From an uncultured bacterium (GTDB taxonomy: Bacteria > Patescibacteriota > Patescibacteriia > Magasanikbacterales > GWA2-37-8), in assembly GCA_937903605.1 (NCBI GenBank), contig CALCZC010000025.1:67275-131274 (forward strand): a stretch of DNA of 64,000 nt, given 5' to 3'. The notes beneath the pieces were generated by a model, which searched no databases, was not told where the DNA came from, and saw only the letters and a program-made list of their open reading frames with translations. The position numbers and the translations under genes are program-made. Positions 21,755-41,745 of this stretch are shown one piece after another (position 1 is the stretch's first letter; the number at the start of each line of letters is the position of its first letter).

Positions 21755-22342
21755 ATGAAATTAACACCAAAAATATTAAAAGCTATTAATTTTGCTAGCA
21801 AAAAGCATAAAAAGGGGGTTAGAAAAGGGGACAAGGGGTTGCCTTATATTAGCCACTGTTTTGCAACTGCCTGGATCTTGAACAGCTTTACCAAAGATGA
21901 AGATGTGATTGTCGCCGGTTTGCTTCACGATGTTATCGAAGATGTCTTGGGGCCCAAGGGTTACAAAATACTTCAAGAAAAATTCGGTCAGCGCGTGGTT
22001 GATATTGTGAAGGGTGTTACCGAAGACAAAGATCCCAACAAAAAAGAAGATGAAAAGCCATGGATTGAAAGAAAACAAGATTATCTTGATCATCTCAAAA
22101 AAGATAGCAAGGAATCCATGATGGTAAGTACAGCGGATAAAATACACAATTTGCAGTCCATGCGCGATGCTTATCGCGAACAAGGGGAAAAATTATGGAA
22201 GAATTTCAACTCTCCGGCGGATAAAAAGCTTTGGTTTTATGAAGAGGTTTATAAGATAGTAAAGGGAAAATTGAGGAATAAAATTGTAGAAGAGTTAAAT
22301 AAACAAATTAAAGGAGCAAAATATGAATTTCATTTATATTAA
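21755..22342 (+). CDS. HD-domain small (p)ppGpp/alarmone hydrolase-like protein (RelA/SpoT HD-type, paralog 1)
   Basis: …HCFATAWIL…AGLLHDVIEDV… matches the SpoT-type HD motif. 195 aa. About 70% identical to the product of 27353-27931. Confidence 0.75.
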   Translation: MKLTPKILKAINFASKKHKKGVRKGDKGLPYISHCFATAWILNSFTKDEDVIVAGLLHDVIEDVLGPKGYKILQEKFGQRVVDIVKGVTEDKDPNKKEDEKPWIERKQDYLDHLKKDSKESMMVSTADKIHNLQSMRDAYREQGEKLWKNFNSPADKKLWFYEEVYKIVKGKLRNKIVEELNKQIKGAKYEFHLY

Positions 22343-24802: not shown

Positions 24803-25465
24803 ATGAAATTAAAGGAGGTTCCCGTCGTCGATAGACCGCGGGAAAAGTTGGAAAAATATGGGGTAAATAGGCTCAGTGACAGCGAGCTTATGGCTATTTT
24901 GATTCGCACCGGGATTGTTGGTAAAAATGTTGTGGAGCTTTCCAAACAAATTTTGAAAAAAATTAAAAAACTCGGTTTGGAAAAAATGGAAATGAAGGAT
25001 TTATTGGAAATAAAAGGTTTGGGAAAAACCAAGGCCGGGCAGATATTGGCAAGCTTGGAAATCGGTCGCCGTTTTCTTCAAAACAAAAAATCCGAATTAA
25101 TACTTTCTCCGCAAGATGTTTGGAACGAAATGAAAGACTTGCGCGACAGTAAAAAAGAACATTTTGTTATTTTTTATCTAGACACGCAAAATCAAATTAT
25201 TAAAAGAGAAATTATTTCCGTCGGCACGTTAAACGAAAGTCTGATTCATCCGCGAGAAGTTTTTGAACCGGCTGTCAGATATTCCACGGCGCAAATAATC
25301 ATGGCGCACAACCATCCGTCCGGGAATTTGGAACCGTCGCCTGAAGATGTCGCAGTTTCAAGACGTTTGATAGACGCCGGAAATTTATTGGGGATTGAAG
25401 TTTTGGATCATATTATCATAACAAAGGACGGTTTTAAAAGCATGAAAGAATTAAAAATGTTATAG
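24803..25465 (+). CDS. radC: RadC-like JAB/MPN domain protein
   Basis: JAMM motif HNHPSGNLEPSPEDV and an N-terminal HhH-like region. Confidence 0.85.
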   Translation: MKLKEVPVVDRPREKLEKYGVNRLSDSELMAILIRTGIVGKNVVELSKQILKKIKKLGLEKMEMKDLLEIKGLGKTKAGQILASLEIGRRFLQNKKSELILSPQDVWNEMKDLRDSKKEHFVIFYLDTQNQIIKREIISVGTLNESLIHPREVFEPAVRYSTAQIIMAHNHPSGNLEPSPEDVAVSRRLIDAGNLLGIEVLDHIIITKDGFKSMKELKML

Positions 25466-26473: not shown

Positions 26474-26506
26474 AACACTTCAGCCTGTAGGTTGAAGTGT
26501 TTTTGT
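26474..26506 (+). terminator. family-2 hairpin (no annotated CDS immediately upstream)
   Basis: aacacttcagcctgtaggttgaagtgtttttgttt. Confidence 0.55.
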
Positions 26507-27352: not shown

Positions 27353-27931
27353 ATGAAACTAACTCCCAAAATACAAAAAGCCATCAATTACGCCAGTCGT
27401 TTGCATGCCAAACAGATAAGAAAAGGGGATAAAGACCTGCCTTATGTCAGCCATTGCTTCACCGCGGCTTGGATTCTCAATGAATTTACCAAAGACGAAG
27501 ATATTATCGTGGCCGGATTGCTTCACGATGTACTGGAAGATGTTCCGGGTTATGGTTACGAAAGGATGAAAAAAGATTTTGGCGCGCGAGTGGCGAAAAT
27601 AGTCGCCGGTGTTACCGAAGATAAAGATCCCAATAAAAAAGAGAAAGAGAAGCCGTGGATTGAAAGAAAACAGAAATATCTCGAGCATCTCAAAAAAGAT
27701 AGCCGGGAATCCATGATGGTAAGCGCAGCGGATAAAATACACAATTTGCAGTCCATGCGCGATGCTTATTGCGAACAAGGGGAGAAATTGTGGAAGCATT
27801 TCAATGCTACAAAAGAGGAATCTCTTTGGTTTTATGAGCAAGTTTATAAGATTATTAGGGGGAAATTGAGGAATAAAATTGTGGGGGAATTGGGGAAACA
27901 ATTGGCAGGGGCAAAAAAGGAATTTAAATAA
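27353..27931 (+). CDS. HD-domain small alarmone hydrolase-like protein (paralog 2)
   Basis: …HCFTAAWILNEFTKDEDIIVAGLLHDVLEDV… matches the SpoT-type HD motif. Paralog of 21755-22342. Confidence 0.75.
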   Translation: MKLTPKIQKAINYASRLHAKQIRKGDKDLPYVSHCFTAAWILNEFTKDEDIIVAGLLHDVLEDVPGYGYERMKKDFGARVAKIVAGVTEDKDPNKKEKEKPWIERKQKYLEHLKKDSRESMMVSAADKIHNLQSMRDAYCEQGEKLWKHFNATKEESLWFYEQVYKIIRGKLRNKIVGELGKQLAGAKKEFK

Positions 27932-27935
27932 TTTT

Positions 27936-27968
27936 TAACACTTCAGCCTGTAGGTTGAAGTGTTTGTT
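27936..27968 (+). terminator. family-2 hairpin terminator
   Basis: aacacttcagcctgtaggttgaagtgtttgtttt. Confidence 0.65.
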
Positions 27969-27986
27969 TTGTGTAATTTTGGCCAT

Positions 27987-28076
27987 TTTGTCATTCCTGT
28001 GGGCCAAAGGCCTCCCTTTGGGAAAGGCAGAGATCTAGGCACTTGTCATCCCCGCGCAGGCGGGGATCCAATGACT
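27987..28076. repeat. two adjacent family-1 units
   Basis: ttgtcattcctgtgggccaaaggcctccctttgggaaaggcagagatctagg + cttGTCATccccgcgcaggcggggatccaATGAC. Confidence 0.7.
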
Positions 28077-28175
28077 AATTTTTCGCAATTTTTCGTATTT
28101 TTATAATTCAAAAATTGGTATTGTAAAAAAGGGGGAAAGAGAGTAAAATATAGACAACTTATTTAATAAAAATTT

Positions 28176-29105
28176 ATGAAAAGTTATTATCGTATAATGC
28201 TTGGCAAGGGTAGTGTTTATGCCAAAGAAGCAAGGTTAGAAAATTTTATGGGCGCCGGATGGCTTGGTGATATTGATTTAACAAATGAATTACCAGAAAG
28301 TCGAGTTGAATTCAATAAGAAATTCATACCTGTTTATTTAAAAAAACATCCTGATGCAAAGAAAATGTCAGCGGCCCTTGCTTGTGGTATGTTATACACG
28401 ATCGCAAAAGGTATTGTTATTGGTGATATTGTTTTATGTCCGGATGGGTCAGGTAATTATTATTTCGGAGAAGTCATTGGTGATTATCAATATGTGTCGG
28501 GAGTAAACTTACCGCACCGTCGTGCTGTGAAATGGTATTCCAAAATTATTCCCAGAGAAGAAATGAGTCAAGCTTTAAAATATTCCACTGGCGCCATTGG
28601 TACAGTTAGCAATATAACCGATCATGCTTCTGAATTAGAAAAATTGATATCAGGTAATGTTGAAAGTCCGATTGTTGTGACCGACGAGTCAATTGAAGAC
28701 CCAAGTGTATTTATGTTAGAGAAACATCTAGAGGATTTTTTGGTACAAAATTGGAACAATACTGAATTGGGTAAGAATTATAATATTTATGAAGAAGATG
28801 GTGAAATAGTGGGGCAACAATATCCTAGCGATACTGGTCCAATAGATATTTTGGCAATTAGTAAAGATAAAAAAACACTTTTGGTAGTTGAGTTAAAAAA
28901 AGGACGCGCAAGTGATGTGGTGGTCGGCCAAATTCAAAGGTACATGGGTTATGTAAAAGACGAATTAGCAGAAAAAAATCAAGAAATTAAAGGGGTTATA
29001 ATTGCTTTTGAAGATGATATTAAAATTCGCCGTGCTTTATCGGTTGCAAATAACATCGATTTTTATACTTATAAAATTGATTTTAAACTTGAAAAAAATA
29101 AATAA
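28176..29105 (+). CDS. YhcG/DUF1016-like PD-(D/E)xK nuclease-domain protein
   Basis: C-terminal …GPIDILAISKDKKTLLVVELKKGRASDVVVGQIQRYMGY… is a D…ExK motif resembling YhcG. It is the first gene of a tightly spaced 15-gene array. Confidence 0.5.
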   Translation: MKSYYRIMLGKGSVYAKEARLENFMGAGWLGDIDLTNELPESRVEFNKKFIPVYLKKHPDAKKMSAALACGMLYTIAKGIVIGDIVLCPDGSGNYYFGEVIGDYQYVSGVNLPHRRAVKWYSKIIPREEMSQALKYSTGAIGTVSNITDHASELEKLISGNVESPIVVTDESIEDPSVFMLEKHLEDFLVQNWNNTELGKNYNIYEEDGEIVGQQYPSDTGPIDILAISKDKKTLLVVELKKGRASDVVVGQIQRYMGYVKDELAEKNQEIKGVIIAFEDDIKIRRALSVANNIDFYTYKIDFKLEKNK

Positions 29106-29107
29106 TT

Positions 29108-30682
29108 ATGACTAATTTTAATACTTCAAAAGAACAAGAACGTGCCGAGCTTCATCGTGCTATTTGGCAAATTGCTAATGATCTAAGGGGAAGTGTAGAT
29201 GGTTGGGATTTCAAACAATATGTTTTGGGAATTTTGTTTTATAGATTTATTGGTGAAAATCTTTCTAATTATATCAATAAACAACAGAGAAAAGTTAAAG
29301 GGTTTGAAAATTTTGAATATTCAAATTTGAGCGATAAAGAAGCAGAATTGGGTAAAAAAGAAATTGTGTTGGCAAAGGGTTTCTATATTCTTCCAAGTGA
29401 GCTTTTTGTAAATGTTCGTAAAAATGCTAAAAACAATGCAAATTTAAACGAAACTCTTTCAAGAGTTTTTAGTAATATTGAAAATTCTGCAAAAGGTTTT
29501 GATAGTGAGGATGATATAAAAGGGTTATTTGCTGACCTTGATGTCAATTCTCCAAAACTTGGAAATACAGTTGAAAAACGTAATCAAAAATTAGTAAAAC
29601 TTTTAGATGCTATTGGAGATCTTCAATTAGGAAATTACTCTGATAATACTATCGATGCTTTCGGTGATGCTTATGAGTTTTTAATGACCATGTATGCTTC
29701 AAATGCTGGTAAATCTGGAGGTGAATTTTATACACCACAAGAAGTTAGTGAATTACTTGCAAAAATTACGACTGTGGGTAAAAAAGAGGTAAACAAAGTT
29801 TATGATCCATGTTGTGGTTCAGGATCGCTTCTTTTGAAATTTGCCAAAGTTCTTGGTAAAGAAAATGTCCGGCTTGGTTTTTTTGGTCAAGAAATAAATC
29901 TTACCACCTATAATTTGTGTCGTATCAACATGTTTTTACACGATATCAACTATAATCATTTTGATATTGAGCTCGGTGACACACTAACTGATCCCAAACA
30001 TTGGGATGACGAACCTTTTGATGCTATAGTTTCTAACCCGCCTTATTCAATTAATTGGGAAGGGGACGCTAATCCGCTTTTAATAAACGACCCTCGTTTT
30101 TCGCCTGCTGGAGTACTTGCTCCAAAGAGTAAAGCTGATTTGGCTTTCACCATGCACATGCTTTCGTGGCTTTCTACCAGCGGAACGGCGGCGATTGTTG
30201 AATTCCCTGGAGTTCTTTATCGTGGTGGAGCTGAAGCAAAAATCCGCAAATATTTGATTGATAACAATTACGTTGATGCTGTAATACAACTTCCACTAGA
30301 TCTTTTCTTTGGTACAACCATTGCTACTTGTGTTATCGTTTTAAAGAAGAGTAAAAAAGACAATAAGACTTTATTTATCGATGCTTCCGCTGAATTTGTT
30401 CGGGGTGGTAATAAAAATAAATTAAACGAAGAAAATCGTAAAAAGATCCTGAATGCTTTTATAGAAAGAAAAGATATAGAACATTTTGCAAAAATTATAG
30501 ATAACAAAGCTATTGCAGAAAATGATTACAATCTAGCAGTTTCTAGTTATGTGGAGCAAAAAGACACTAGAGAAGCAGTGGACATAAAAGAACTTAATAA
30601 AGAAATTGAGAGAATCGTAAAAAGACAAAGTGAATTAAGGTTGGCAATTGATGAGATTGTGAGGGAGATTGAGGGTAATTAA
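29108..30682 (+). CDS. hsdM: Type I restriction-modification system, DNA methyltransferase subunit M
   Basis: N6-adenine MTase motif IV NPPYS, an AdoMet-binding region (DPCCGSGSLL), and an HsdM N-terminal domain. Confidence 0.9.
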   Translation: MTNFNTSKEQERAELHRAIWQIANDLRGSVDGWDFKQYVLGILFYRFIGENLSNYINKQQRKVKGFENFEYSNLSDKEAELGKKEIVLAKGFYILPSELFVNVRKNAKNNANLNETLSRVFSNIENSAKGFDSEDDIKGLFADLDVNSPKLGNTVEKRNQKLVKLLDAIGDLQLGNYSDNTIDAFGDAYEFLMTMYASNAGKSGGEFYTPQEVSELLAKITTVGKKEVNKVYDPCCGSGSLLLKFAKVLGKENVRLGFFGQEINLTTYNLCRINMFLHDINYNHFDIELGDTLTDPKHWDDEPFDAIVSNPPYSINWEGDANPLLINDPRFSPAGVLAPKSKADLAFTMHMLSWLSTSGTAAIVEFPGVLYRGGAEAKIRKYLIDNNYVDAVIQLPLDLFFGTTIATCVIVLKKSKKDNKTLFIDASAEFVRGGNKNKLNEENRKKILNAFIERKDIEHFAKIIDNKAIAENDYNLAVSSYVEQKDTREAVDIKELNKEIERIVKRQSELRLAIDEIVREIEGN

Positions 30683-30688
30683 ATTAAT

Positions 30689-32890
30689 ATGAATAAATTA
30701 AAAGTTAAATTAGAAAATTGTTACGGAATAAAAAAGCTTGAACACGAGTTTGATTTTTCTAATTTTAAAACTTTTGTTATCTATGCACCCAACGGCGTAA
30801 TGAAGACATCATTTGCAAAAACCCTTAGCGATATTGCAAAAGGAGAAAAACCCTGTGATCAAATAGATGATACTTTAACACCAATTTTTAATTTTTTAAT
30901 TGATGATTCTGAAAATCAAATCCAATCAGAAGAAATATGTGTTATAGAGTCATACAACAAAAAAGCGTTTGATTCTGAAGATAAGATTCTTACGCTTCTA
31001 GCAGACGACGAGACCAAAAAGGAATATTTGGCAATATTTAACGAAATTGAATCACTTAAAAAAGCTTCTCTTCCTGGATTAAAAAAAATATCAGGCAGTA
31101 GTAACTACGAATCTGAAATTACAGAAGCATTTTCTAATCTTGATAAGAAAAATATTTTTGAAATTTTTGAGGCCGTTTTAAATGACATTGAAGCATCGAA
31201 AGATTCATTTGAATTTAAATATAACGATGTTTTTGATAAAGGTGGAAAAGTTAAAAAATTTCTGGCAGATAATTTTGCATTATTAAAAGAGTACATTGAA
31301 AAATACAATGATCTGATTAGTAAGTCTACTTTTTTTGCAAAAAATGCCAACCATATTTTTGGAACAACGGAAGCAAAAATTCTTGGTAAGTCGCTTGAGG
31401 GCGATGAATATTTTACTGCTGGGCATAAATTAGTATTAAAATCACATGGGGATGTATCTGCTAAAAATAAATTATCAGAAATAATTGATGAGGAAATTGA
31501 AAAAGTTTTTAATGATAAAGACCTGAAAGATATTTTTGAAAAAATCGATAATTTGCTCAATACTAATAAAGAACTTCAAGCATTTAAGAAGATTATTGAA
31601 AGAGACAATTCAATTTTATTGAGATTAAATAATTACGATGCTTTTAGAAGAGAGGTGTGGTTTAGTTTTTTAAAACAAATTGAGACAAGCATAAAATCAT
31701 TAGTTGAATTATATAATCAGAAAAAGGTTGATTTAGAAAGGATTATACAAAAAGCAAAGGACAGTCAGTCACAATGGGAAAGTGCTATTAAAGAATTTGA
31801 AAACAGATTTGTTAATAATCCATTTACTCTTGAAATTCAAAATAAGGCGGACGCTGTATTAAACGAAAAGACACCAGTAATTGATTTTAAATTTCAAGGA
31901 AAAGATATCGAAAGAAACAATTTGATAGAAAATGTATTGAGCCAAGGAGAGAGACGAGCTTTTTATATTTTAAATGTTATTTTTGAGATTAAATCTCGGC
32001 AGCTACAAAACAAAAAAACATTATTTATTATTGATGACATAGCGGACTCGTTTGATTACAAAAATAAATATGCAATTATTGAATATTTAAATGATTTATC
32101 CAAAGAAGATAATTTCTATTCAATAATTTTAACGCACAACTTTGACTTTTTTAGGACACTTCAATCAAGAATCTTGCAAGATAATAAGTGGAACTATTCT
32201 TTTATAGCAGAAAAACTAACAGATGAAATTAAACTAATTAAAGCAGGTAGTAAAAATGTTACTGACCCATTTACTAACTGGAAAGCAGGTCTTAATAACA
32301 ACAAAAAACATTTAATTGCTTGTATTCCTTTTGTGCGAAATTTGATTGAATTTAAAGATGGACGAAATGATGGATATAAGCTTCTAACGCACACTCTTCA
32401 TAGAAAATCTTTGGACGAAACTATTAAAGCAACCCCAGATATTTCAATTGCTGATCTACAAGCACCGTTTTCGAGTGTTGTGTCTGGTGTTGCATTTACA
32501 TTTACAGACACAAATGAAAAAATTATTGATGTAATTGAGGAACAGATAGCAGTGATAAAAAATGACAGAAATACCGATTCAATTGTTCTAGAAGATAAAA
32601 TTATTTTTGCTATTGGAATAAGATTGAAAGCAGAAGAATATATGTGGTCGAAGGTTACAAACCAAGATCTAATAAACGGATCGCAAACAGGTAAGCTGTT
32701 TCAGCGATACAAAGATCAATTTAAACAAGATCCGACTCATGTTGAAGCTATAAAAATCTTAGAAAGCGTAAATATAATGACTCCTGAGAACATACACCTG
32801 AACTCTTTTATGTATGAACCAATTTTAGATATAGGCATAGATGAGTTAAAGAGTTTACACGATAAGGTTTGCAATTTAATGAATAATTAG
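30689..32890 (+). CDS. ABC-type (Rad50/SMC-like) ATPase with ~400-aa helical insertion and C-terminal R-x3-E…H module; RloC-like anticodon-nuclease candidate
   Basis: Degenerate Walker A APNGVMKTS. ABC signature LSQGERRAF, Walker B LFIIDDIADSFD and H-loop ILTHNFDFF about 400 aa downstream. C-terminal GIRLKAEEY…(39 aa)…H. Lies between hsdM and hsdS. Confidence 0.5.
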   Translation: MNKLKVKLENCYGIKKLEHEFDFSNFKTFVIYAPNGVMKTSFAKTLSDIAKGEKPCDQIDDTLTPIFNFLIDDSENQIQSEEICVIESYNKKAFDSEDKILTLLADDETKKEYLAIFNEIESLKKASLPGLKKISGSSNYESEITEAFSNLDKKNIFEIFEAVLNDIEASKDSFEFKYNDVFDKGGKVKKFLADNFALLKEYIEKYNDLISKSTFFAKNANHIFGTTEAKILGKSLEGDEYFTAGHKLVLKSHGDVSAKNKLSEIIDEEIEKVFNDKDLKDIFEKIDNLLNTNKELQAFKKIIERDNSILLRLNNYDAFRREVWFSFLKQIETSIKSLVELYNQKKVDLERIIQKAKDSQSQWESAIKEFENRFVNNPFTLEIQNKADAVLNEKTPVIDFKFQGKDIERNNLIENVLSQGERRAFYILNVIFEIKSRQLQNKKTLFIIDDIADSFDYKNKYAIIEYLNDLSKEDNFYSIILTHNFDFFRTLQSRILQDNKWNYSFIAEKLTDEIKLIKAGSKNVTDPFTNWKAGLNNNKKHLIACIPFVRNLIEFKDGRNDGYKLLTHTLHRKSLDETIKATPDISIADLQAPFSSVVSGVAFTFTDTNEKIIDVIEEQIAVIKNDRNTDSIVLEDKIIFAIGIRLKAEEYMWSKVTNQDLINGSQTGKLFQRYKDQFKQDPTHVEAIKILESVNIMTPENIHLNSFMYEPILDIGIDELKSLHDKVCNLMNN

Positions 32891-32891
32891 T

Positions 32892-34010
32892 ATGAAAAAA
32901 CACCAATCAAAAATTGAAAAACTAATTTCAGAACTATGCCCTAATGGTGTGGAGTTTAAAATGCTTGGAGAACTAGAAGATGATAATTTGATTAAACTTG
33001 GACGTGGAAATGTAATTTCAAAAACTGATATTACAAACACACCTGGTGATTATCCGGTTTATTCTTCATCTGCAAATGATGAGGGCGAATTTGGCAGGTA
33101 TGGAAAATATATGTTTGATGATGAAAGAATTACGTGGTCAATCGATGGGGGCGGTAGATTTTTTTATAGACAGTCACATAAATATTCTGTAACAAATGTA
33201 TCGGGGTGGTTAAAAGTAAATGATAATAATGTATTAAATTTACGTTATTTGTATTTTGTTCTGTCAAATGCTTGGTTAACAAAAGTTTTTGATTATACAA
33301 AAAAAGCTCATCCTTCAGTAATTAGAGAAGAGTACAAAATCCCTATTCCACCTCTTGCAATTCAAGAAGAAATTGTAAAAATTCTTAATAGTTTTACGGA
33401 GCTGGAAGCGGAGCTGGAAGCGGAGCTGGAAGTAAGAAAGAAACAGTATGATTATTACCATAAAGAACTTTTTGATTTAAGGGATGATTTCGAATTAAAA
33501 ACACTTGGGGATATTTACGAATTTCAATATGGAGAAGGAAATACTATTCCTACTTCAGGGGATAAATTTCCAGTATATGGAAGTAATGGTATTGTTGGTT
33601 CTCATGAAAAATTCAACAGTGAAGATGCTCCGGTGATTGGACATATTGGAGCTTACGCAGGAATAGTAAATTGGGCTCAAGGAAAACACTTTGTTACATA
33701 CAACGGAGTTATTTGTAAAATCAAGCCAGGAGTTAATCCAAGGTTTGGTTATCATCTGTTGATTCTCCAAGATTTTAGATCAAAAGCAAACGCAGGGTCT
33801 CAACCTTTTGTTTCTTACGACATGCTTAGAAAAACCGAAGTAAAAATACCTCCTATTTTAATACAAAATAAAATTGCAGATGTCCTTGATAAATTTGATG
33901 CACTTGTAAACGATATTTCAGTTGGTTTGCCTGCCGAGCTCAAAGCACGTAGGTCACAATACGAATATTATAGAAATAAACTTCTTGATTTTAAAGAGTT
34001 AGAAAAATAA
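32892..34010 (+). CDS. hsdS: Type I restriction-modification system, specificity subunit S
   Basis: Two target-recognition domains. Central and C-terminal conserved helices (…LAIQEEIVKILNSFTELEAEL… and …LPAELKARRSQYEYYRNKLLDF). Confidence 0.85.
   Translation: MKKHQSKIEKLISELCPNGVEFKMLGELEDDNLIKLGRGNVISKTDITNTPGDYPVYSSSANDEGEFGRYGKYMFDDERITWSIDGGGRFFYRQSHKYSVTNVSGWLKVNDNNVLNLRYLYFVLSNAWLTKVFDYTKKAHPSVIREEYKIPIPPLAIQEEIVKILNSFTELEAELEAELEVRKKQYDYYHKELFDLRDDFELKTLGDIYEFQYGEGNTIPTSGDKFPVYGSNGIVGSHEKFNSEDAPVIGHIGAYAGIVNWAQGKHFVTYNGVICKIKPGVNPRFGYHLLILQDFRSKANAGSQPFVSYDMLRKTEVKIPPILIQNKIADVLDKFDALVNDISVGLPAELKARRSQYEYYRNKLLDFKELEK
33398..33433 (+). repeat. 3× 12-bp in-frame tandem repeat (GGAGCTGGAAGC; EAEL units) in the central conserved region of hsdS
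   Basis: ggagctggaagcggagctggaagcggagctggaagt. Confidence 0.85.
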
Positions 34011-34011
34011 T

Positions 34012-35166
34012 ATGGTTGAATTCGACTCAATCTCTGAATTGTTTGTTAATATAAAAAATGATTTATTATCAGATATTGATAAAAAGAGTATTGCTTTACT
34101 TTATGCTTTTAATTCTACTGGTAAGACAAGGCTTTCTATTGAGTTTGATGAATTAAACGAAAATGATAATGGTTATATTAAAGTACTATCTTATAATGCT
34201 TTTTTAGAAGACCTGTTTGTCTGGGATAATAAGAACCTTGTCTTAAATTTTAGTCCGGATGATTGGCGGATAAGATTTATTCAGGATCAAGGTTTAGAAA
34301 ATAAAATTGTAGAGAATTTTAAATTATTTACTAATTCAAAAGTTGAGCCTATCTTTGAAATTGAAACACATAGAGCAGAGCTCGATAAATTTATATTAGA
34401 CAAATCTAAACTAGGTGGAAATAAGATAGGAAAAATTTCTTTTTTTATTGCTTCAGGAGATGGAAAAAATAAAGATAGCATAAAAATTTCTAAAAGTGAA
34501 GAAAGTATACTGATATGGTCTGTTTTTTATTCTATTTTAGAGATTGTTATAGAAGAATTAAATACACCAGAAGAACATCGTTCAACTAATCTTTTTAATC
34601 ACCTTGAATATATTGTAATAGATGATCCTGTTTCTTCGATCGATGATGAAAGAATTATTTCTTTAGCAGTAAAATTATGTAGGACTATAAAGTTAAATGA
34701 AAATAGAAAAATAAACTTTTTAATAACCACACATCACGCTTTATTTTTTAATGTTTTATTTAATTCTTTCAAAAAATTTCAAAAATCTGATGTAAAAAAA
34801 TATTGTTATATTTTATCAAAAAATGGTAATATTTTTATATTAGAAAGCCAGAAAGATGATTCACCGTTTGCATATCATATTTTAGTTAAAAATAAGCTTA
34901 AAGAAGCAATAAAAAATGGAAGTCTTGAAAAATACCATTTTAATTTATTTAGAACTTTATTAGAAAAAACGGCAAATTTTTTAGGATATACTGATTGGGG
35001 TGAGTGTATTTATAAAGAAGAAAACAGAGAAGAAGTTAAAAGACTTATTAATTTATATAGTCATAGCAAATTATCAGAATTGGAAAGTGGAAGTTTAAGT
35101 AATGCTGATAAAGAGTTGTTTGCAAATACTTTTAATTCTTTTATGGAAGATTTTAAATATAAATAA
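34012..35166 (+). CDS. PrrC-like anticodon nuclease candidate (ABC-type ATPase N-domain + C-terminal R-x3-E…H module)
   Basis: Walker A FNSTGKTRL, Walker B YIVIDDPVSSIDD, H-loop LITTHHALFF. C-terminal FRTLLEK…(37 aa)…YSHSK. Sits between hsdS and hsdR, as in the prr locus. 384 aa (PrrC is about 396). Confidence 0.55.
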   Translation: MVEFDSISELFVNIKNDLLSDIDKKSIALLYAFNSTGKTRLSIEFDELNENDNGYIKVLSYNAFLEDLFVWDNKNLVLNFSPDDWRIRFIQDQGLENKIVENFKLFTNSKVEPIFEIETHRAELDKFILDKSKLGGNKIGKISFFIASGDGKNKDSIKISKSEESILIWSVFYSILEIVIEELNTPEEHRSTNLFNHLEYIVIDDPVSSIDDERIISLAVKLCRTIKLNENRKINFLITTHHALFFNVLFNSFKKFQKSDVKKYCYILSKNGNIFILESQKDDSPFAYHILVKNKLKEAIKNGSLEKYHFNLFRTLLEKTANFLGYTDWGECIYKEENREEVKRLINLYSHSKLSELESGSLSNADKELFANTFNSFMEDFKYK

Positions 35167-35169
35167 ATT

Positions 35170-38100
35170 ATGTCTAAAAATAATAATTACAATTTAGTTG
35201 CAGAAAATACACAAAGCACGGTTGTCGCCGAGTATGTTTCTGGTACAAAAAGATTATCACAATATCAAAGTGAAGATGCTTTAGAAAAAGCTTTTATTAA
35301 ACAATTAGAATCTCAGGCGTATGAATATATTGCGATTAAATCCGAAAATGATTTGATTCTTAATCTTCGCAAACAACTTGAAAAGTTAAATAGTTATACT
35401 TTTTCTGATGCAGAATGGGATAGATTTTTTACGAGCGAAATAGCAAATCCAAATCAGAGTATTGAAGAAAAAACTGCAACTATACAAGAAAATGAAGTAA
35501 AAAATTTATATGGTGATGATGGAAAATTTAAAAGAAATATAACTCTTTTAGATAAGAAAAATATTCACAACAACAGTCTGCAAGTCATCAATCAGTACGT
35601 CACCGAAGACGGACAAAGATCGAATCGTTATGATGTGACGGTATTGGTAAATGGATTACCGCTTATACACATTGAATTAAAACGTCGTGGAGTTGCTATT
35701 CAAGAAGCATTTAACCAAATAAACAGATATCAAAGAGAGAGTTTTTGGGCTTCAAGTGGTCTTTTTGAATATGTGCAATTGTTTGTAATATCTAATGGAA
35801 CACATACAAAATATTACAGCAATACAACAAGATCACAACACGTCAAAGAATCTCAAGAGGGTTCTAAAAATAAAGGAAAGAAGACCAGTAATAGTTTTGA
35901 ATTTACAAGTTGGTGGGCTGATGCAACAAATAGACCAATCACTGATTTGATGGACTTTGCAAAAACATTTTTTGCAAAGCATGCGATTTTGAATATTCTG
36001 ACGAAGTATTGCGTATTTACGACCGATCGCCTTTTGCTTGTTATGCGACCGTATCAAATCGTAGCAACAGAAAGAATTTTAAATCGCATTGAAGTTAGTA
36101 CAAATTATAAAAAACTTGGCACCACCGAAGCGGGTGGCTATATTTGGCACACCACAGGGTCAGGAAAGACTCTGACGAGTTTTAAAACTGCTCAATTGGC
36201 AAGTAAATTGTCATATGTAGATAAAGTATTGTTTGTGGTAGATCGTAAGGATTTGGACTATCAAACAATGAAAGAATATGACAAGTTTGAAAAAGGTGCG
36301 GCGAACAGCAATACGAGCACTGCGGTTTTAAAGAAACAACTGGAGGATTCAAATTCTAGAATTATTATCACAACAATTCAAAAACTTGATAGATTTATTG
36401 CCAAAAATTCTAGTCACACTATTTTTGATGGTCATATCGTAATTATTTTTGACGAGTGTCATCGTTCGCAATTTGGTGAAATGCATTCGAGTATTATAAA
36501 ATCATTTAATAATTATCACTTATTTGGATTTACTGGAACACCAATATTTTCTAAGAATGCTTCAGCTGGTGGCAGACCTGATTTCAAGACCACAGAGCAG
36601 GCTTTTGGTGAAAAATTACACACTTATACAATAGTTGATGCTATTTCTGATAAGAATGTTTTACCGTTTAAAGTTGATTATGTTTCAACTGTTAAAGAAG
36701 CAGAAAATATTGAAGACGCTCAAGTAAAAGATATTGACCGTGAAGCGGTATTATCCGCTCCAGAACGATTAGAAAATATTGTTCGCTATATTCGTGAACA
36801 TTTTGATCAGAAAACTAAAAGAAATAGTTTTTATAAAATTCAAGATAGAAGATTAGCGGGGTTTAATTCTGTTTTTGCAGTTTCTTCTATTGAGGTAGCA
36901 AAGAAATATTATCTTGAATTTAAAAGACAGTTGGCAGATGAACCGAGTGATAAAAAATTAAAAGTCGCCACAATATTTAGTTTTGGAGTAAATGACGAGG
37001 ATATAGACGGAATGATTGATGAAAATTCTGAAGATACAAGTGGTTTAGACGTAAGTTCAAGAGAGTTTCTTGAAAGTGCTATCAAAGATTATAATAAAAT
37101 GTTTGGAACGTCTTATGACACTTCATCTGAAAAATTTCAAAATTACTATAAAGATGTTAGTGAAAAAGTAAAAAAACGAGAAATAGACATCTTAATTGTG
37201 GTTAATATGTTTTTAACTGGTTTTGATGCTACTACTTTAAATACTTTGTGGGTAGATAAGAATTTGAGATTGCATGGATTACTTCAGGCATATTCAAGAA
37301 CTAACCGTATATTAAATAGTATTAAAACTTTTGGAAATATTGTTTGTTTTAGAAACCTAGAAAAAGCTACTAATGAAGCGATTGCTTTATTTGGAGATAA
37401 AGAAGCCGGTGGAATCGTATTACTTAAAGCATATGAGGATTACTACAATGGGTATAAAGAAGGTAATAAAGAAGTTCGAGGATACAAAAGTTTTGTTAAT
37501 GAACTACTTGCAAAGTTTCCAATCGGAGAAAGAATTATTGGAGAACAAAATCAAAAAGATTTTATAAAATTATACGGAGCAATTTTGAGAGTCAAAAATA
37601 TTTTAGCTACTTTCGATGAATTTAATGGTAATGAAATATTATCTGATAGAGATGTGCAAGATTATCATAGTATGTATATTGATTTATACAATGAATTCCG
37701 CAAAGCCGATGATTCTGAGAAAGAAAACATTAATGACGATATTGTTTTTGAAATGGAACTTATCAAACAAGTTGAAATTAACATTGATTATGTTCTTGGT
37801 CTTATAAAAATATATCATGAGGATCATGTAAAAAATAAAGAACTTTTGATAGATATTAATAAAGCAATTGATTCGAGTGTGGAATTGCGTAATAAAAAAG
37901 ATTTGATCAATCAGTTTATTACTTCCCTTGATGTTCATTCTATCATTGATGAAGATTGGCAAAAGTTTGTGGAAGAGAAAAAAGTCCAAGAATTAGAACA
38001 AATTATTGAAACTGAAAATCTTGATCATGAAGCTACATATAAATTTATAAAAAACTCTTTTAGAGATGGTAATATACCGATTACAGGAACCGCTATAAGT

Positions 38101-38226
38101 GATATTTTGCCACCAGTATCAATGTTTTCCCCAAACGGAGAAAGAACTAAAAAAAGAGAAGGTGTTTTGGATAAATTAACAAGATATTTTGAGAGGTTTT
38201 TTGATATTAGTAAAAGAGATTTATAG
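35170..38226 (+). CDS. hsdR: Type I restriction enzyme, R subunit (helicase/endonuclease)
   Basis: N-terminal PD-(D/E)xK (…LIHIELKRRG). SF2 motifs TTGSGKT (I), FDECHRSQ (II) and further helicase motifs. 1018 aa. Confidence 0.9.
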   Translation: MSKNNNYNLVAENTQSTVVAEYVSGTKRLSQYQSEDALEKAFIKQLESQAYEYIAIKSENDLILNLRKQLEKLNSYTFSDAEWDRFFTSEIANPNQSIEEKTATIQENEVKNLYGDDGKFKRNITLLDKKNIHNNSLQVINQYVTEDGQRSNRYDVTVLVNGLPLIHIELKRRGVAIQEAFNQINRYQRESFWASSGLFEYVQLFVISNGTHTKYYSNTTRSQHVKESQEGSKNKGKKTSNSFEFTSWWADATNRPITDLMDFAKTFFAKHAILNILTKYCVFTTDRLLLVMRPYQIVATERILNRIEVSTNYKKLGTTEAGGYIWHTTGSGKTLTSFKTAQLASKLSYVDKVLFVVDRKDLDYQTMKEYDKFEKGAANSNTSTAVLKKQLEDSNSRIIITTIQKLDRFIAKNSSHTIFDGHIVIIFDECHRSQFGEMHSSIIKSFNNYHLFGFTGTPIFSKNASAGGRPDFKTTEQAFGEKLHTYTIVDAISDKNVLPFKVDYVSTVKEAENIEDAQVKDIDREAVLSAPERLENIVRYIREHFDQKTKRNSFYKIQDRRLAGFNSVFAVSSIEVAKKYYLEFKRQLADEPSDKKLKVATIFSFGVNDEDIDGMIDENSEDTSGLDVSSREFLESAIKDYNKMFGTSYDTSSEKFQNYYKDVSEKVKKREIDILIVVNMFLTGFDATTLNTLWVDKNLRLHGLLQAYSRTNRILNSIKTFGNIVCFRNLEKATNEAIALFGDKEAGGIVLLKAYEDYYNGYKEGNKEVRGYKSFVNELLAKFPIGERIIGEQNQKDFIKLYGAILRVKNILATFDEFNGNEILSDRDVQDYHSMYIDLYNEFRKADDSEKENINDDIVFEMELIKQVEINIDYVLGLIKIYHEDHVKNKELLIDINKAIDSSVELRNKKDLINQFITSLDVHSIIDEDWQKFVEEKKVQELEQIIETENLDHEATYKFIKNSFRDGNIPITGTAISDILPPVSMFSPNGERTKKREGVLDKLTRYFERFFDISKRDL

Positions 38227-38232
38227 GTTTGT

Positions 38233-38946
38233 ATGAATATTTTAGGAATACACACTGAATTTATTGTTAATTCAACTCTATTAATAGGAGCTGTGGCTTA
38301 TCTATCACACTTTTTTGGTAAAGTCATAACCGACTGCAAACCAATAGTTGATGATCGTAAATGGGATGCCGAACTTTCCGGAGTTTATTATATTGGAATG
38401 TATGTTTTTTTGCCACTTACACTTTTATTAATCATTCCGCAATCCATATTGATGAATTTTCTTGATTCAATTGGTTTAAATAGTTTTGTTGCTGTTTTAT
38501 TACAGTTTATCCTTTGCTCTTATCTTTCTGTGTTTCAAGTAATTAAGTCACGGTTTTTTTACAGTGTGCCAACAGGACAAATAAAGTGGGTTGAAAAACG
38601 AATTGTAGAATATATAAAAAAGAAACGAAATTTTAAATTAAGTATTATTTTGGTGTTACTTGCACAAATACAATTATATTATTCTAGCAATGTTAGATTA
38701 TTTATTCTTGGTTTAATATTTTGTTTGATCTTTTATTTTTTACGTGCTGCCATATTTTCTTATGATAAAAATGTAAAACTAAATAAATTTAATATTTATT
38801 TTATAGATACAACGATTGCACCTTTACTTAATTATGATTTGGTTAAAATTAACGATGATCATATTAAGTTAAAAAAAGACGGTAAATTTATGATTATAAA
38901 TAAAAATACTATTTTACGTCTTGAGTGTTTAGAAAAAGAAAAATAA
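38233..38946 (+). CDS. hypothetical membrane protein
   Basis: 237 aa with about five TM helices. Very AT-rich. Confidence 0.4.
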   Translation: MNILGIHTEFIVNSTLLIGAVAYLSHFFGKVITDCKPIVDDRKWDAELSGVYYIGMYVFLPLTLLLIIPQSILMNFLDSIGLNSFVAVLLQFILCSYLSVFQVIKSRFFYSVPTGQIKWVEKRIVEYIKKKRNFKLSIILVLLAQIQLYYSSNVRLFILGLIFCLIFYFLRAAIFSYDKNVKLNKFNIYFIDTTIAPLLNYDLVKINDDHIKLKKDGKFMIINKNTILRLECLEKEK

Positions 38947-38953
38947 TAAAAAT

Positions 38954-39592
38954 ATGAATTTAAATGATTATACCAAAAGATTTGAAAAATGTTATCAAAT
39001 TTTTTCCGAAACTTTTTTAAGTTTTTTTGTTTGGAAGGGATTACAAGATAAAGATTTTGAAAAGACATATTCAGAAAATAATTATTTTTGGTCCGCCATT
39101 CTTCGTTCGCTTGAAAATGATTGGCTTACTAATCTTGCAAAAATATATGAAGAATCAAGATATAGTAAAGAAAATGAAGTAATTTCTGTGTATGCTCTTG
39201 TATCATACCAGGCTGACCTTGATCGAGCAGTCAAAGTCAGACAGATTTTAGAAGTAAATGCAGATATTATTAAAAATATTCAAATTTTACGTCATAATCA
39301 GTTGGCGCACAATAATGCTGAGCATTTACTAAAGCCGGAGACGTTGTTAGAGAAATTTCCGATTGAATATAATAAAGTAGAACAACTTGTGTTGTTAACA
39401 GATGAAGTTTTATCAAATTTACATCCTGAAACGGGTCACGGATATATTTATAAAATGCTTTCTGAAGATGCTGTCAACGACAGTAAAAATATTATAAAAA
39501 AATTACAATATTATTCAAAACTTCACCATAATCATTCAGAAAAATTTAGGTGTGGAGAAGTAAATGATTGGAAATTTCCACCAGATTTATAA
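38954..39592 (+). CDS. HEPN-like (R-x4-6-H) Abi-type hypothetical protein
   Basis: …ILRHNQLAHNNAEH… fits the HEPN Rx4-6H motif. Immediately downstream of hsdR. Confidence 0.4.
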   Translation: MNLNDYTKRFEKCYQIFSETFLSFFVWKGLQDKDFEKTYSENNYFWSAILRSLENDWLTNLAKIYEESRYSKENEVISVYALVSYQADLDRAVKVRQILEVNADIIKNIQILRHNQLAHNNAEHLLKPETLLEKFPIEYNKVEQLVLLTDEVLSNLHPETGHGYIYKMLSEDAVNDSKNIIKKLQYYSKLHHNHSEKFRCGEVNDWKFPPDL

Positions 39593-39603
39593 TTTAAATA
39601 AAT

Positions 39604-40179
39604 ATGCAAACACCGATTTTAATAAAAGAACATGTGAGTATAACTCAATTTATTAATTTTTGGTCAAGTTATTATATTTATGCAAAAATTGAAAATTATT
39701 ATATAAAAAATATAAATAAAAAAGTATTTGATAGTGAAACGTTAAACGCTTTATTTATGTGGAAGAATGGATCTGTGTTAAGTAAAAAAAAGAAAGATTC
39801 TCTGAATAAAAATATTATAAGAAAAATTGAAATAATAAATTCTCTTAAAAATAAATTTGATTTCGATCTGTTTAAAAAGGAATTTAAAAATGTGTCTGTA
39901 ATATGGAAAATTTTTCTTCTAAACTTAATTAAACCGAAAACATACCCCATATTTGATCAACATGTTTTTAGAGCGATGAAATTTATTAAATTTTCTAAAA
40001 TTGAAGAAGTTCCAAATAATGACAGAGAAAAAGAAGAAGTATATTTTGATGAATACATAGATTTTTTTAATAAAATTAAAGCTGAATTACCAAGAGATTT
40101 TGATAATAAAAAAATTGATGAAGCACTTTGGTCTTTTGGAAAATTTCTTAAGAGTAATTACAAAACAATTTTATGTTAG
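39604..40179 (+). CDS. hypothetical protein
   Basis: 191-aa Lys-rich ORF. No motif recognised. Confidence 0.35.
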   Translation: MQTPILIKEHVSITQFINFWSSYYIYAKIENYYIKNINKKVFDSETLNALFMWKNGSVLSKKKKDSLNKNIIRKIEIINSLKNKFDFDLFKKEFKNVSVIWKIFLLNLIKPKTYPIFDQHVFRAMKFIKFSKIEEVPNNDREKEEVYFDEYIDFFNKIKAELPRDFDNKKIDEALWSFGKFLKSNYKTILC

Positions 40180-40946
40180 GTGCTATTGCCGGTGACATTA
40201 TAGGTTCCGCTTTTGAATGGAACAACAAAAAAACAACGGACTTCTCTTTGTTTTCTGAAAAATCTATTTTTACCGATGACACCATAATGACTGTGGTGGT
40301 GATGGAAAGTTTGCTTACAAATAAAGATTATTTTTTTAAATTCAAAGATATAGGTCGCAGGTATCCGGATGCCGGATGGGGAGATGTATTTAGACAGTGG
40401 CTTTTTTCTCGACAAGAAGAACCCAACGATAGCTTTGGAAACGGCGCGGCAATGAGAGTAAGCCCTATGGGTTTCTTTTTTGACGACCTTGATTCTGTTT
40501 TGGAAGAAACGGCAATATGTACAAATATATCCCACGACCACGTAGAAGCTCGCAAAGGCGCACAAGCTGTGGCTTCTGCCGTATTTTTGGCTAGGACCGG
40601 TAAAACCAAGCAAGAGATTAAAGAATACGTTGAAAAGAAGTTTGGATATGATTTAAGCAGAAAATTGGATGATATTCGGCCGAATTACAGGTATGATGTA
40701 AGTTGTCAGGGGTCCGTACCAGAAGCTATTATCGCTTTTTTGGAATCAGAAAATTTTGAGGATGCTATCCGAAAAGCGGTTTCTTTGGGAGGGGATAGTG
40801 ATACTATCGCTTGTATAACCGGTGGCGTTGCCGAAGCTTTTTATAAAGGTGTACCAATTGATATAATGGAAAAGGTTAGAGTTTTATTACCGCCAGAATT
40901 GTTGGAAATAGTAGATAAATTTTACGAATATATTAATAATAAATAA
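40173..40946 (+). CDS. ADP-ribosylglycohydrolase (DraG/ARH family)
   Basis: N-terminal MLGAIAGDIIGS and C-terminal GGDSDTIACITGG. Both are hallmark ARH motifs. Confidence 0.85.
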   Translation: MLGAIAGDIIGSAFEWNNKKTTDFSLFSEKSIFTDDTIMTVVVMESLLTNKDYFFKFKDIGRRYPDAGWGDVFRQWLFSRQEEPNDSFGNGAAMRVSPMGFFFDDLDSVLEETAICTNISHDHVEARKGAQAVASAVFLARTGKTKQEIKEYVEKKFGYDLSRKLDDIRPNYRYDVSCQGSVPEAIIAFLESENFEDAIRKAVSLGGDSDTIACITGGVAEAFYKGVPIDIMEKVRVLLPPELLEIVDKFYEYINNK

Positions 40947-40947
40947 T

Positions 40948-41745
40948 ATGTCCGAATACTACACCCCCAAACGTACAAAAAATATCTTTGATCCAAAATC
41001 CAAAGAGCCTTTTAAAATATCTCGTTCCAAACTGGACCTATTTTTAAACTGCCCTCGCTGTTTTTATTTGGATCGTCGTCTCGGTGTTGGTCAACCGCCC
41101 GGATATCCTTTCAACCTCAACTCTGCCGTTGATGCCTTGCTCAAAAAAGAATTTGATATTCATCGCGCGAAAAACACTACCCATCCGCTCATGAAAACAT
41201 ACGGATTGGACCTTGTTCCGCTTGCCCATGACAAAATGAACGAATGGCGAGAGAATTTTGTCGGCGTGCAATATTTGCACGAGCCTACCAATTTGATTAT
41301 CACCGGCGCGGTTGATGATCTATGGGTGGATGCTCCCACCCCCTCTACCTCCTCTTCCGCCAAAGGCGGACAGGCGGGCAGGGGGAGAGAAAAAATTTAT
41401 ATTGTTGACTACAAGTCTACGAGTAAAAGCACGGAAGTGAACTTGGATGCTGACTGGCAAATAGGATATAAGAGACAGATGGAGGTTTATCAATGGTTGA
41501 TGCGTAAAAATGGCTTTCAGGTTTCTGATACCGGTTATTTTGTCTATTGCAACGGCCGGACCGACCGAGAGGCCTTTGACAGTAAATTGGAATTTGATGT
41601 AAAGATTATTCCCTACATTGGCGATGATAGTTGGGTGGAAAAAGCCATCGTTGCCGCGCACAAATGTCTGATGAGCGACAAAATCCCCAAAGCAGGGGAG
41701 GGTTGCGATTTTTGTCGTTACGTCGATGAAGCGAGTAAATTTTAG
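40948..41745 (+). CDS. Cas4-like / RecB-family PD-(D/E)xK nuclease with Fe-S cysteines
   Basis: N-terminal …SRSKLDLFLNCPRCFYL…, core IVDYKST…QMEVYQWL, and C-terminal …GEGCDFCRY. It carries a low-complexity GC-rich insert (APTPSTSSSAKGGQAGRGRE). Confidence 0.65.
   Translation: MSEYYTPKRTKNIFDPKSKEPFKISRSKLDLFLNCPRCFYLDRRLGVGQPPGYPFNLNSAVDALLKKEFDIHRAKNTTHPLMKTYGLDLVPLAHDKMNEWRENFVGVQYLHEPTNLIITGAVDDLWVDAPTPSTSSSAKGGQAGRGREKIYIVDYKSTSKSTEVNLDADWQIGYKRQMEVYQWLMRKNGFQVSDTGYFVYCNGRTDREAFDSKLEFDVKIIPYIGDDSWVEKAIVAAHKCLMSDKIPKAGEGCDFCRYVDEASKF

Follow-up and report, generated by a model that had tools for sequence, protein, structure and literature searches.

A Type I restriction-modification (R-M) operon that holds an ABC-ATPase gene at both junctions between its hsd genes raises the question of whether a single R-M complex can keep two latent ribonucleases (RNases) in check. 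The operon lies in a 64,000-nucleotide (nt) stretch of DNA, the window, from an uncultured bacterium of the Patescibacteriota (assembly GCA_937903605.1, contig CALCZC010000025.1, positions 67,275 to 131,274), whose nearest homologs carry the names Candidatus Magasanikbacteria, Paceibacteria, and Nomurabacteria; the exact locus is also present on independent metagenome contigs (e.g., ENA ERZ724084). The original prediction, made from the letters of this DNA, took the locus for a composite defense array in which both ATPases are putative anticodon nucleases (ACNases), possibly masked by the R-M complex. Our analysis points, with moderate confidence, to a Type IC-like R-M operon with independent embedded defense modules, in which the R-M enzyme would form the first line, the 384-amino-acid (aa) ATPase, a PrrC, would be silenced by that enzyme, and the 733-aa ATPase, PDC-S46 (hereafter S46), would act as an autonomous RloC-like module.

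A Type IC-like R-M operon with PrrC between hsdS and hsdR

The window proteins were scanned against Pfam, PADLOC, NCBIfam, and PHROGs. The following genes make up the hsd operon (matches with E-values):

29108-30682, + strand: hsdM, Type I methyltransferase subunit (Pfam N6_Mtase, 2.6e-115, and HsdM_N, 1e-17; PADLOC MTase_I, 1.6e-132)
30689-32890, + strand: PDC-S46, a 733-aa SMC/Rad50-type ABC ATPase (PADLOC PDC-S46, 6.7e-231, residues 1-730 against positions 1-718 of the 719 in the model; phrog_38705)
32892-34010, + strand: hsdS, specificity subunit (Methylase_S, 1.5e-36, in two stretches, i.e., two target-recognition domains; PADLOC Specificity_I, 6e-87)
34012-35166, + strand: prrC, predicted latent anticodon nuclease of 384 aa (PADLOC PrrC, PDLC02360, 2.6e-100 over residues 20-384; Pfam AAA_13, 5.5e-11)
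35170-38226, + strand: hsdR, restriction/translocase subunit (EcoR124_C, 2e-65, T1R_D3-like, SWI2_SNF2, and HSDR_N; PADLOC REase_I, E 0)

Judged from their sequences, HsdM, HsdS, and HsdR constitute a complete Type IC-like R-M system with intact subunits. The Type IC assignment of HsdR follows from its EcoR124_C domain, and the Type IC family takes in EcoprrI (PMC3874165). Among related loci, HsdS is 32-37% identical, versus 70-83% for HsdM and HsdR. As its full-length subunits suggest, the enzyme would methylate host DNA and cut unmodified DNA, thereby forming the initial line of defense.

The 384-aa protein can be assigned to the PrrC family as a bona fide member on the combined grounds of size, Walker A motif, catalytic triad, and gene position. 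PrrC proteins are 341-416 aa long (PMC2610378), and the AAA_13 match of the window protein exceeds the Pfam gathering score. In alignments of 34 and 70 homologs, the motifs of its N-terminal ABC NTPase (Walker A G37-K38-T39-R40, Walker B D204-D205, and H241) are 97-100% conserved; the Arg that ends Walker A is a PrrC-specific determinant (PMC3458546). The C-terminal triad, R314-x3-E318-x31-S350-H351 with a Glu-His spacing of 32, has R314, E318, S350, and H351 conserved in 100% of the 70 sequences and corresponds to the ACNase triad R320/E324/H356 of EcoPrrC (PMC2610378). For gene position we surveyed 160 related loci, comprising 80 S46 loci from reference genomes and 80 PrrC loci from metagenomes (labels of the form L011 below denote surveyed loci). 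Essentially all 80 PrrC loci have prrC between hsdS and hsdR, as does the window, and hsdM-hsdS-PrrC-hsdR is their canonical order.

The prr-like core anticipated for this locus is therefore real, with a true PrrC in its expected place. The operon resembles EcoprrI/PrrC (prrA-prrB-prrC-prrD of E. coli CT196) in its Type IC order hsdM-hsdS-prrC-hsdR (PMC2610378, PMC3458546, PMC3874165) and in a PrrC that combines an ABC NTPase with an Arg-ended Walker A and an R-x3-E...S-H ACNase triad. It differs in that the window operon adds PDC-S46 between hsdM and hsdS and the nuclease gene PDC-S02 upstream, and its host belongs to a lineage like those of the candidate phyla radiation (CPR), whereas EcoprrI is enterobacterial. 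By analogy with EcoprrI/PrrC, the window PrrC would be silenced by the HsdMSR complex and freed once that enzyme is disabled by an anti-restriction factor of a phage; the freed PrrC would then cleave tRNA anticodon loops, bringing translation to a stop.

S46 is an ABC ATPase with an invariant polar set in its C-terminal domain

S46 carries the motifs of an ABC ATPase: Walker A NGVMK39T (residues 33-40), the signature LSQGE (417-421; family consensus L417-S-x-G-E421), Walker B D449D450, and an invariant H483. The ATPase head is divided by a helical insert of ~270 aa (residues ~100-375 in the AlphaFold2 model), and its closest structural matches are SMC/Rad50/RecF DNA-handling proteins together with retron and Septu ATPases. 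The family P-loop reads A-P-N-G-x-M-K-T, with Met38 in place of the second Gly in 79/79 sequences. A Met at this position is atypical of ABC ATPases and may alter how nucleotides are bound or discriminated.

Residues 520-733 (~210 aa) form an all-helical C-terminal domain, which when modeled alone reaches a predicted local distance difference test score of 88 and a predicted template modeling score of 0.87. Across 79 S46 sequences of 27-67% identity, R550, H571, K637, R645, E649, H703, N705, and E710 are invariant. The protein has just two R-x3-E sites, both conserved: R550/E554 with H571 downstream, and R645/E649 with H703 downstream, the latter trio being 100% conserved in the 79 sequences. 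The R-x3-E...H module that had been read in both ATPases is thus present in each of them, in PrrC as R314/E318/H351 and in S46 at these two sites. A Foldseek search of the domain against the PDB gave no significant match, the top probabilities in the list belonging to HEPN toxins; the fold is only tentatively HEPN-like.

Sequence searches with this domain led back to S46 itself. A profile of the domain, run against 1.84 billion representatives, had S46-type proteins or fragments as its best 150 matches, with no other architecture among them. A Pfam scan at E<=10 of 23 C-terminal domain sequences returned noise only, and no relative turned up among PDB sequences, whether S46, PrrC, or their profiles served as the query. 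We also considered an internal duplication of the C-terminal region into two HEPN-like halves, each with its own R-x3-E...H; the half-domain comparison did not support it.

Beyond the P-loop, homology between S46 and PrrC is undetectable. Full-length profiles (38 and 34 sequences) aligned with hhalign pair the Walker A region alone, at a probability of 38%, and the C-terminal-domain profiles (78 and 69 sequences) align with a probability of <1%. Comparisons of S46 and PrrC half-domains yielded nothing significant, with one recurring local pairing of 'PFVRNLIE' in S46 with 'NLFRTLLE' in PrrC. S46 has no AAA_13 match at E<0.01 in Pfam and no PrrC match in PADLOC, where its matches are PDC-S46 plus a weak mad8 and nothing else.

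The likeness of S46 to RloC lies in architecture. RloC is defined by a length of 658-897 aa and an Arg-X3-Glu-X36-52-His triad (PMC2610378). S46 falls within this size range, has an ABC ATPase interrupted by a long helical insert (PMC2610378) and a C-terminal helical domain with an invariant R-x3-E...H, and, like RloC, is mostly unlinked to R-M loci and now and then inserted in them (PMC2610378). It differs in Glu-His spacing, which is 53 in R645-x3-E649-x53-H703, one residue beyond the RloC range, and 16 in the second site, R550-x3-E554-x16-H571. It also differs from RloC in having neither AAA_13 or PrrC-type sequence similarity nor a zinc hook, with no CxxC within residues 90-400 in any of the 79 homologs.

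PrrC and RloC have nuclease domains that are classified as divergent HEPN domains and are joined to SbcC/Rad50-like ABC ATPases (PMC3710099), which places S46 in the same architectural class. The ABC-ATPase-HEPN fusions described by Anantharaman et al. (2013, PMC3710099) likewise join an ABC ATPase to a C-terminal HEPN-type domain inside R-M operons. S46 differs from them in that it lacks the Rx4-6H signature that defines catalytic HEPN families: no conserved Arg stands 4-6 residues ahead of H571 or H703 in S46 homologs. Because it has neither profile similarity, AAA_13, Rx4-6H, nor a zinc hook, and because its spacing is 53, S46 is best described as an analog of RloC and PrrC and not as a demonstrated member of either family. 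The proposal that both ATPases are ACNases consequently holds for the 384-aa protein, through its PADLOC assignment to PrrC, and finds no such backing for S46.

From its architecture and residue conservation, we propose that S46 would act as an RNase in the manner of RloC. The ATPase head and helical insert would serve as sensor and switch, and an NTP-dependent rearrangement would unmask a metal-independent RNase site formed by R645/E649/H703, possibly with R550/H571, leading to abortive infection.

Among the alternatives, the one that survives best, which we nevertheless consider unlikely, is that S46 is not a nuclease at all, but a sensor ATPase of the SMC/Rad50 kind, with a helical C-terminal domain that has no catalytic role and serves binding or oligomerization. 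Such a protein would act by binding or clamping DNA, or would modulate the R-M enzyme or an effector encoded in trans. The resemblance of its head to DNA handlers and to retron and Septu ATPases, which use separate effectors, fits this alternative, as do the missing Rx4-6H motif, the lack of a Pfam or PADLOC nuclease domain, and the nonsignificant Foldseek result; some HEPN domains are described as non-catalytic (PMC3710099). What argues for a nuclease instead is the dense set of invariant polar residues (R550, H571, K573, K637, R645, E649, H703, N705, E710, and D714), which is typical of an active site, together with the restriction of the domain to the S46 architecture among the best 150 matches and the lack of a conserved partner gene that could provide an effector.

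Defense genes are commonly nested in PrrC operons

Two latent effectors guarded by one Type I R-M complex, with both inter-hsd junctions occupied, had been considered an unusual arrangement, with no described case known. Among the PrrC loci, extra genes lie between hsdM and hsdS in 27 of the 52 that are informative, so double junction occupancy is common. The inserts include RhuM/PDC-S05 (9 loci), OLD-like ATPases (5), SIR2+HerA, Shedu, a CBASS cyclase, DUF6119, and PDC-S06. Examples at the hsdM-hsdS junction, with coordinates in the respective locus, are:

L126, 1280-3418: PDC-S06, a 712-aa AAA_13 ABC ATPase
L096, 4296-7368: SIR2+HerA
L122, 4578-5450: CBASS-type cyclase
L111, 2043-3173: Shedu
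L110, 416-2993: RhuM+DUF6119

As L126 carries PDC-S06, the window is also not alone in having another ABC ATPase next to PrrC. Two further observations concern these cassettes. A cluster of 170-aa proteins at L130, L134, and L152 has no family match. In L010, L104, L106/L107, L108, L117, L120/L121, and L124, hsdM, hsdR, or prrC is split into several short ORFs (open reading frames), and such cassettes seem often to have been inactivated, by frameshift or decay.

Nesting of this kind has also been published. Payne, Hughes, Fineran, and Jackson (2024, bioRxiv 10.1101/2024.01.29.577857) described Type I R-M, BREX, DISARM, and Hma operons in which defense genes are 'embedded'; they found PrrC to be embedded almost exclusively in Type I systems, and their 145 PDC candidates are predictions. 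The window conforms to their 'guilt-by-embedding' principle, of which PrrC is the paradigm: defense genes are nested in its Type I R-M operon, and its S46 and S02 proteins match the PDC hidden Markov models over their full length. It goes beyond the preprint text in two respects on which that text is silent, the domain content of S46 and the pairing of S46 with PrrC; the names 'PDC-S46' and 'PDC-S02' are absent from the supplements of Payne et al. (2024) that were searched. According to Anantharaman et al. (2013, PMC3710099, Table 1), PrrC and RloC are often accompanied in R-M operons by RhuM or Doc toxins, and 16 or more HEPN clades are R-M-linked; the co-embedding of RhuM/PDC-S05 seen here in nine PrrC loci and in L011 and L012 agrees with this. 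In Campylobacter jejuni, rloC is named as an insert in Type I loci (PMC2610378, citing Miller et al. 2005; PMC2928727). The C. jejuni rlo loci likewise have additional genes between Type I hsd genes, and differ from the window in the genes inserted and in host phylum. The nesting seen in the window is thus already described and common, and the locus is a good example of it, not a new kind of system.

S46 as an autonomous module or a second guarded effector

S46 is a large family, with >7,600 clusters at 90% identity and 1,191 representatives at 50% identity, spread over bacterial phyla, some archaea, and viral contigs and phages (12 viral-contig relatives). Its links to R-M genes follow several patterns. 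In the CPR clade (L008-L012 and L017), S46 lies between hsdM and hsdS, as in the window; compared with the window, hsdM and hsdR are 70-83% identical and S46 48-67%. Two Saccharibacteria loci (L011 and L012) have the order hsdM-(RhuM)-S46-hsdS-PrrC-hsdR, and an independent metagenome contig with flanks unlike those of the window (L086) has hsdM-S46-hsdS-PrrC-hsdR. The gene order of the window, whose recurrence in relatives had been proposed as a check, is therefore found again in these loci, and the S46+PrrC pairing is recurrent but rare. L008, L009, and L017 are sister cassettes with S46 and without PrrC. In L039, L053, L073, L079, and the viral contig L175 (8001-10157), PrrC is absent and S46 sits in its slot between hsdS and hsdR.

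The alternative in which a single Type I R-M complex physically masks both PrrC and S46 as latent ABC-ATPase RNases, each to be freed on R-M inhibition in a two-effector back-up, appears improbable on these data. It draws on the 16 of 80 reference-genome loci in which S46 lies inside hsd operons, several of them with S46 in the hsdS-hsdR slot (as also in the viral L175), on the persistence of the hsdM-S46-hsdS layout across the divergence of S46 in the CPR clade, on the recurrence of the five-gene order with PrrC, and on the ABC-plus-HEPN-like layout common to PrrC and S46 (PMC3710099). In the other 64 of the 80 loci, no hsd gene lies within 10 kilobases (kb) of S46, and no neighboring gene is conserved across the 80. 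S46 also occurs on viral contigs and in PHROGs. The many unrelated systems accepted at the hsdM-hsdS junction point to a permissive insertion site and not to a specific partnership, the sister cassettes keep S46 without PrrC, and close gene spacing, which had been taken as a sign of co-translation and possibly of masking, is found throughout this genome. An obligatory guarding of S46 by the R-M complex is hence unlikely.

The frequency of S46 away from hsd genes and its presence on viral contigs make an autonomous RloC-like module the most likely reading, in preference to a second R-M-guarded effector. The varied inserts at the hsdM-hsdS junction and the occurrence of S46 both with PrrC (L011, L012, and L086) and without it (L008, L009, and L017) indicate that hsd cassettes are modular. 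S46 would have become nested in the operon through the tendency of defense genes to be transferred and expressed together, with no obligatory physical partnership.

Several points weigh against this preferred reading. S46 has been kept at the same junction in the CPR hsd clade despite its divergence, and in other phyla it is found exactly where PrrC would sit; some functional coupling of S46 to Type I enzymes would fit either fact. Because Met replaces the second Gly of Walker A throughout the family, NTP binding by S46, on which the proposed switch would depend, is an assumption. A literature search found no paper that mentions PDC-S46.

A narrower version of dual masking is doubtful too, and slightly more so: that within the CPR/Patescibacteria Type IC clade, one R-M complex holds two structurally different latent RNases of the ABC-ATPase/HEPN type, PrrC and an independently evolved S46. 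Were S46 indeed a second R-M-guarded effector, able to take the PrrC slot in other phyla, the arrangement would provide a layered back-up against different anti-restriction strategies.

Neighboring genes and the extent of the operon

Eleven + strand ORFs between 28176 and 41745 were found in the ORF list where they had been predicted, co-directional and separated by 1-11 nt, except for one pair that overlaps by 7 nt (successive intergenic distances 2, 6, 1, 1, 3, 6, 7, 11, -7, and 1 nt). The families named for them (YhcG-like nuclease, HsdM/S/R, ATPases, HEPN protein, ADP-ribosylglycohydrolase (ARH), and Cas4-like nuclease) agree with the Pfam and PADLOC results, and the membrane protein agrees with its hydropathy. 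The genes that flank the hsd operon, preceded by a hairpin, are:

27937-27964, + strand: terminator-like hairpin with a 12-bp stem, 4-nt loop, and T-rich tail, 6 nt 3' of an HD-domain gene
28176-29105, + strand: PD-(D/E)xK nuclease PDC-S02 (PADLOC PDC-S02, 3e-153, full length; NucS_C, 4e-08; YhcG_C, 1.5e-06)
38233-38946, + strand: 237-aa protein predicted to cross the membrane several times (multiple hydrophobic segments long enough to span it, with hydropathy maxima near residues 50-104 and 156-174)
38954-39592, + strand: AbiU2-family HEPN protein of 212 aa (HEPN_AbiU2, 4e-12, 46.4 bits against a cut-off of 26.8)
39604-40179, + strand: 191-aa protein with no match in Pfam, PADLOC, PHROGs, and further family scans
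40173-40946, + strand: ARH (ADP_ribosyl_GH, 4e-35; phrog_6572, 6e-53)
40948-41745, + strand: Cas4-like PD-(D/E)xK nuclease (PDDEXK_1, 6e-10; cysteines C35/C38 and C253/C256 as CxxC...CxxC; Cas4 matches weak and below threshold)

The hairpin probably marks the 5' boundary of the operon and closes the preceding HD-domain gene. The 244-nt space at 27931-28176 is the only sizeable intergenic gap before 43901, and from 28 kb to 44 kb a hairpin scan detected no strong terminator on the + strand. Beyond 41745 the genes stay closely packed up to 43901: a 117-aa ORF and genes for an alpha/beta hydrolase, a GNAT protein, and a HAD hydrolase follow at distances of 8, 3, 4, and 14 nt. Almost every gene of the window is on the + strand. 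Tight co-directional spacing is accordingly a trait of the genome and gives no evidence for joint function of the eleven genes. The 28-nt hairpin, AACACTTCAGCCTGTAGGTTGAAGTGTT, has a T-rich tail and occurs in two identical + strand copies, at 26474-26501 and 27937-27964, which flank a 125-aa ORF and the HD-domain gene; the hairpin could be a terminator present twice or mark where a duplication joins. No tRNA gene that could mark an integration site was found in the window.

Two of the flanking genes are candidates for further add-ons to the defense operon. The PDC-S02 gene at its 5' end, which stops 2 nt ahead of hsdM, encodes a DUF8426 N-terminal part (as annotated on the identical contig) and a NucS_C/YhcG_C-like C-terminal nuclease domain; PDC-S02 was found in none of the 160 related loci. 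After hsdR, the AbiU2 protein belongs to a recognized abortive-infection HEPN family. It contains the R-x5-H motif RHNQLAH, which conforms to Rx4-6H, and is a candidate abortive-infection-type RNase. The 237-aa membrane protein encoded just before it, for which Pfam, PADLOC, PHROGs, and further family scans gave no match, may be paired with it.

The 191-aa protein, ARH, and the genes beyond are probably mere neighbors in a compact genome. Homologs of the 191-aa protein (87 clusters of ~190 aa, in bacteria and archaea, with no Pfam domain) are found in settings as different as housekeeping genes and a Type III R-M/Fic neighborhood, and the protein probably stands outside any defense module. We considered a toxin/antitoxin-like pairing with ARH and rejected it, as the homologs lie in unrelated contexts; since no ARH neighbor was seen in those contexts, the 7-nt overlap of the two genes is no sign of a conserved pair.

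Of the predicted composite array, several defense-type genes stand, while its downstream part is only partly defense-like, the 191-aa protein having no defense signal. L086 and L011 have only the hsd/S46/PrrC core in common with the window, and with PDC-S02 in 0/160 loci the 'array' is best seen as a variable neighborhood around that conserved core. That all eleven genes are one co-evolved composite defense array working as a unit is very improbable: co-directional close spacing, the lack of a strong terminator, and defense-type domains in several genes speak for it, but the flanks and PDC-S02 are not conserved, the 191-aa protein is not defense-linked elsewhere, and the same spacing extends into the hydrolase, GNAT, and HAD genes.

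Upstream of the operon is a pair of paralogous HD_4/HD phosphohydrolase genes (21755-22342 and 27353-27931), separated by 5 kb. The interval holds a RusA-like gene, an SNase-domain gene (PADLOC 'C3a212 SNc+LTD', E 1e-35), RadC, and NYN; the region is possibly a further nuclease-rich island. RadC (JAB-domain) genes also occur adjacent to PrrC-type hsd operons, or not far from them, on several unrelated contigs, namely L011 (6740-7384), L012 (999-1643), L122 (1532-2263), L167 (3368-4012), and L097 (14137-14799), with the window copy at 24803-25465; RadC may thus be loosely associated with this Type I clade.

Implications

The locus reveals no new principle. It is a clean natural example, from the little-studied CPR/Patescibacteria, of a Type I R-M operon with a classical PrrC and an uncharacterized ABC-ATPase candidate. 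The hsdM-hsdS junction of PrrC operons appears to be a hotspot, filled in about half of the loci, that could be mined for further defense genes. The practical value of the locus is that it points to PDC-S46, a widespread family whose effector half has no Pfam domain. For this family it provides the hypothesis of an RloC-like ABC-HEPN RNase, with R645, E649, and H703 as candidate catalytic residues and K39 and D449/D450 as candidate residues of the switch.

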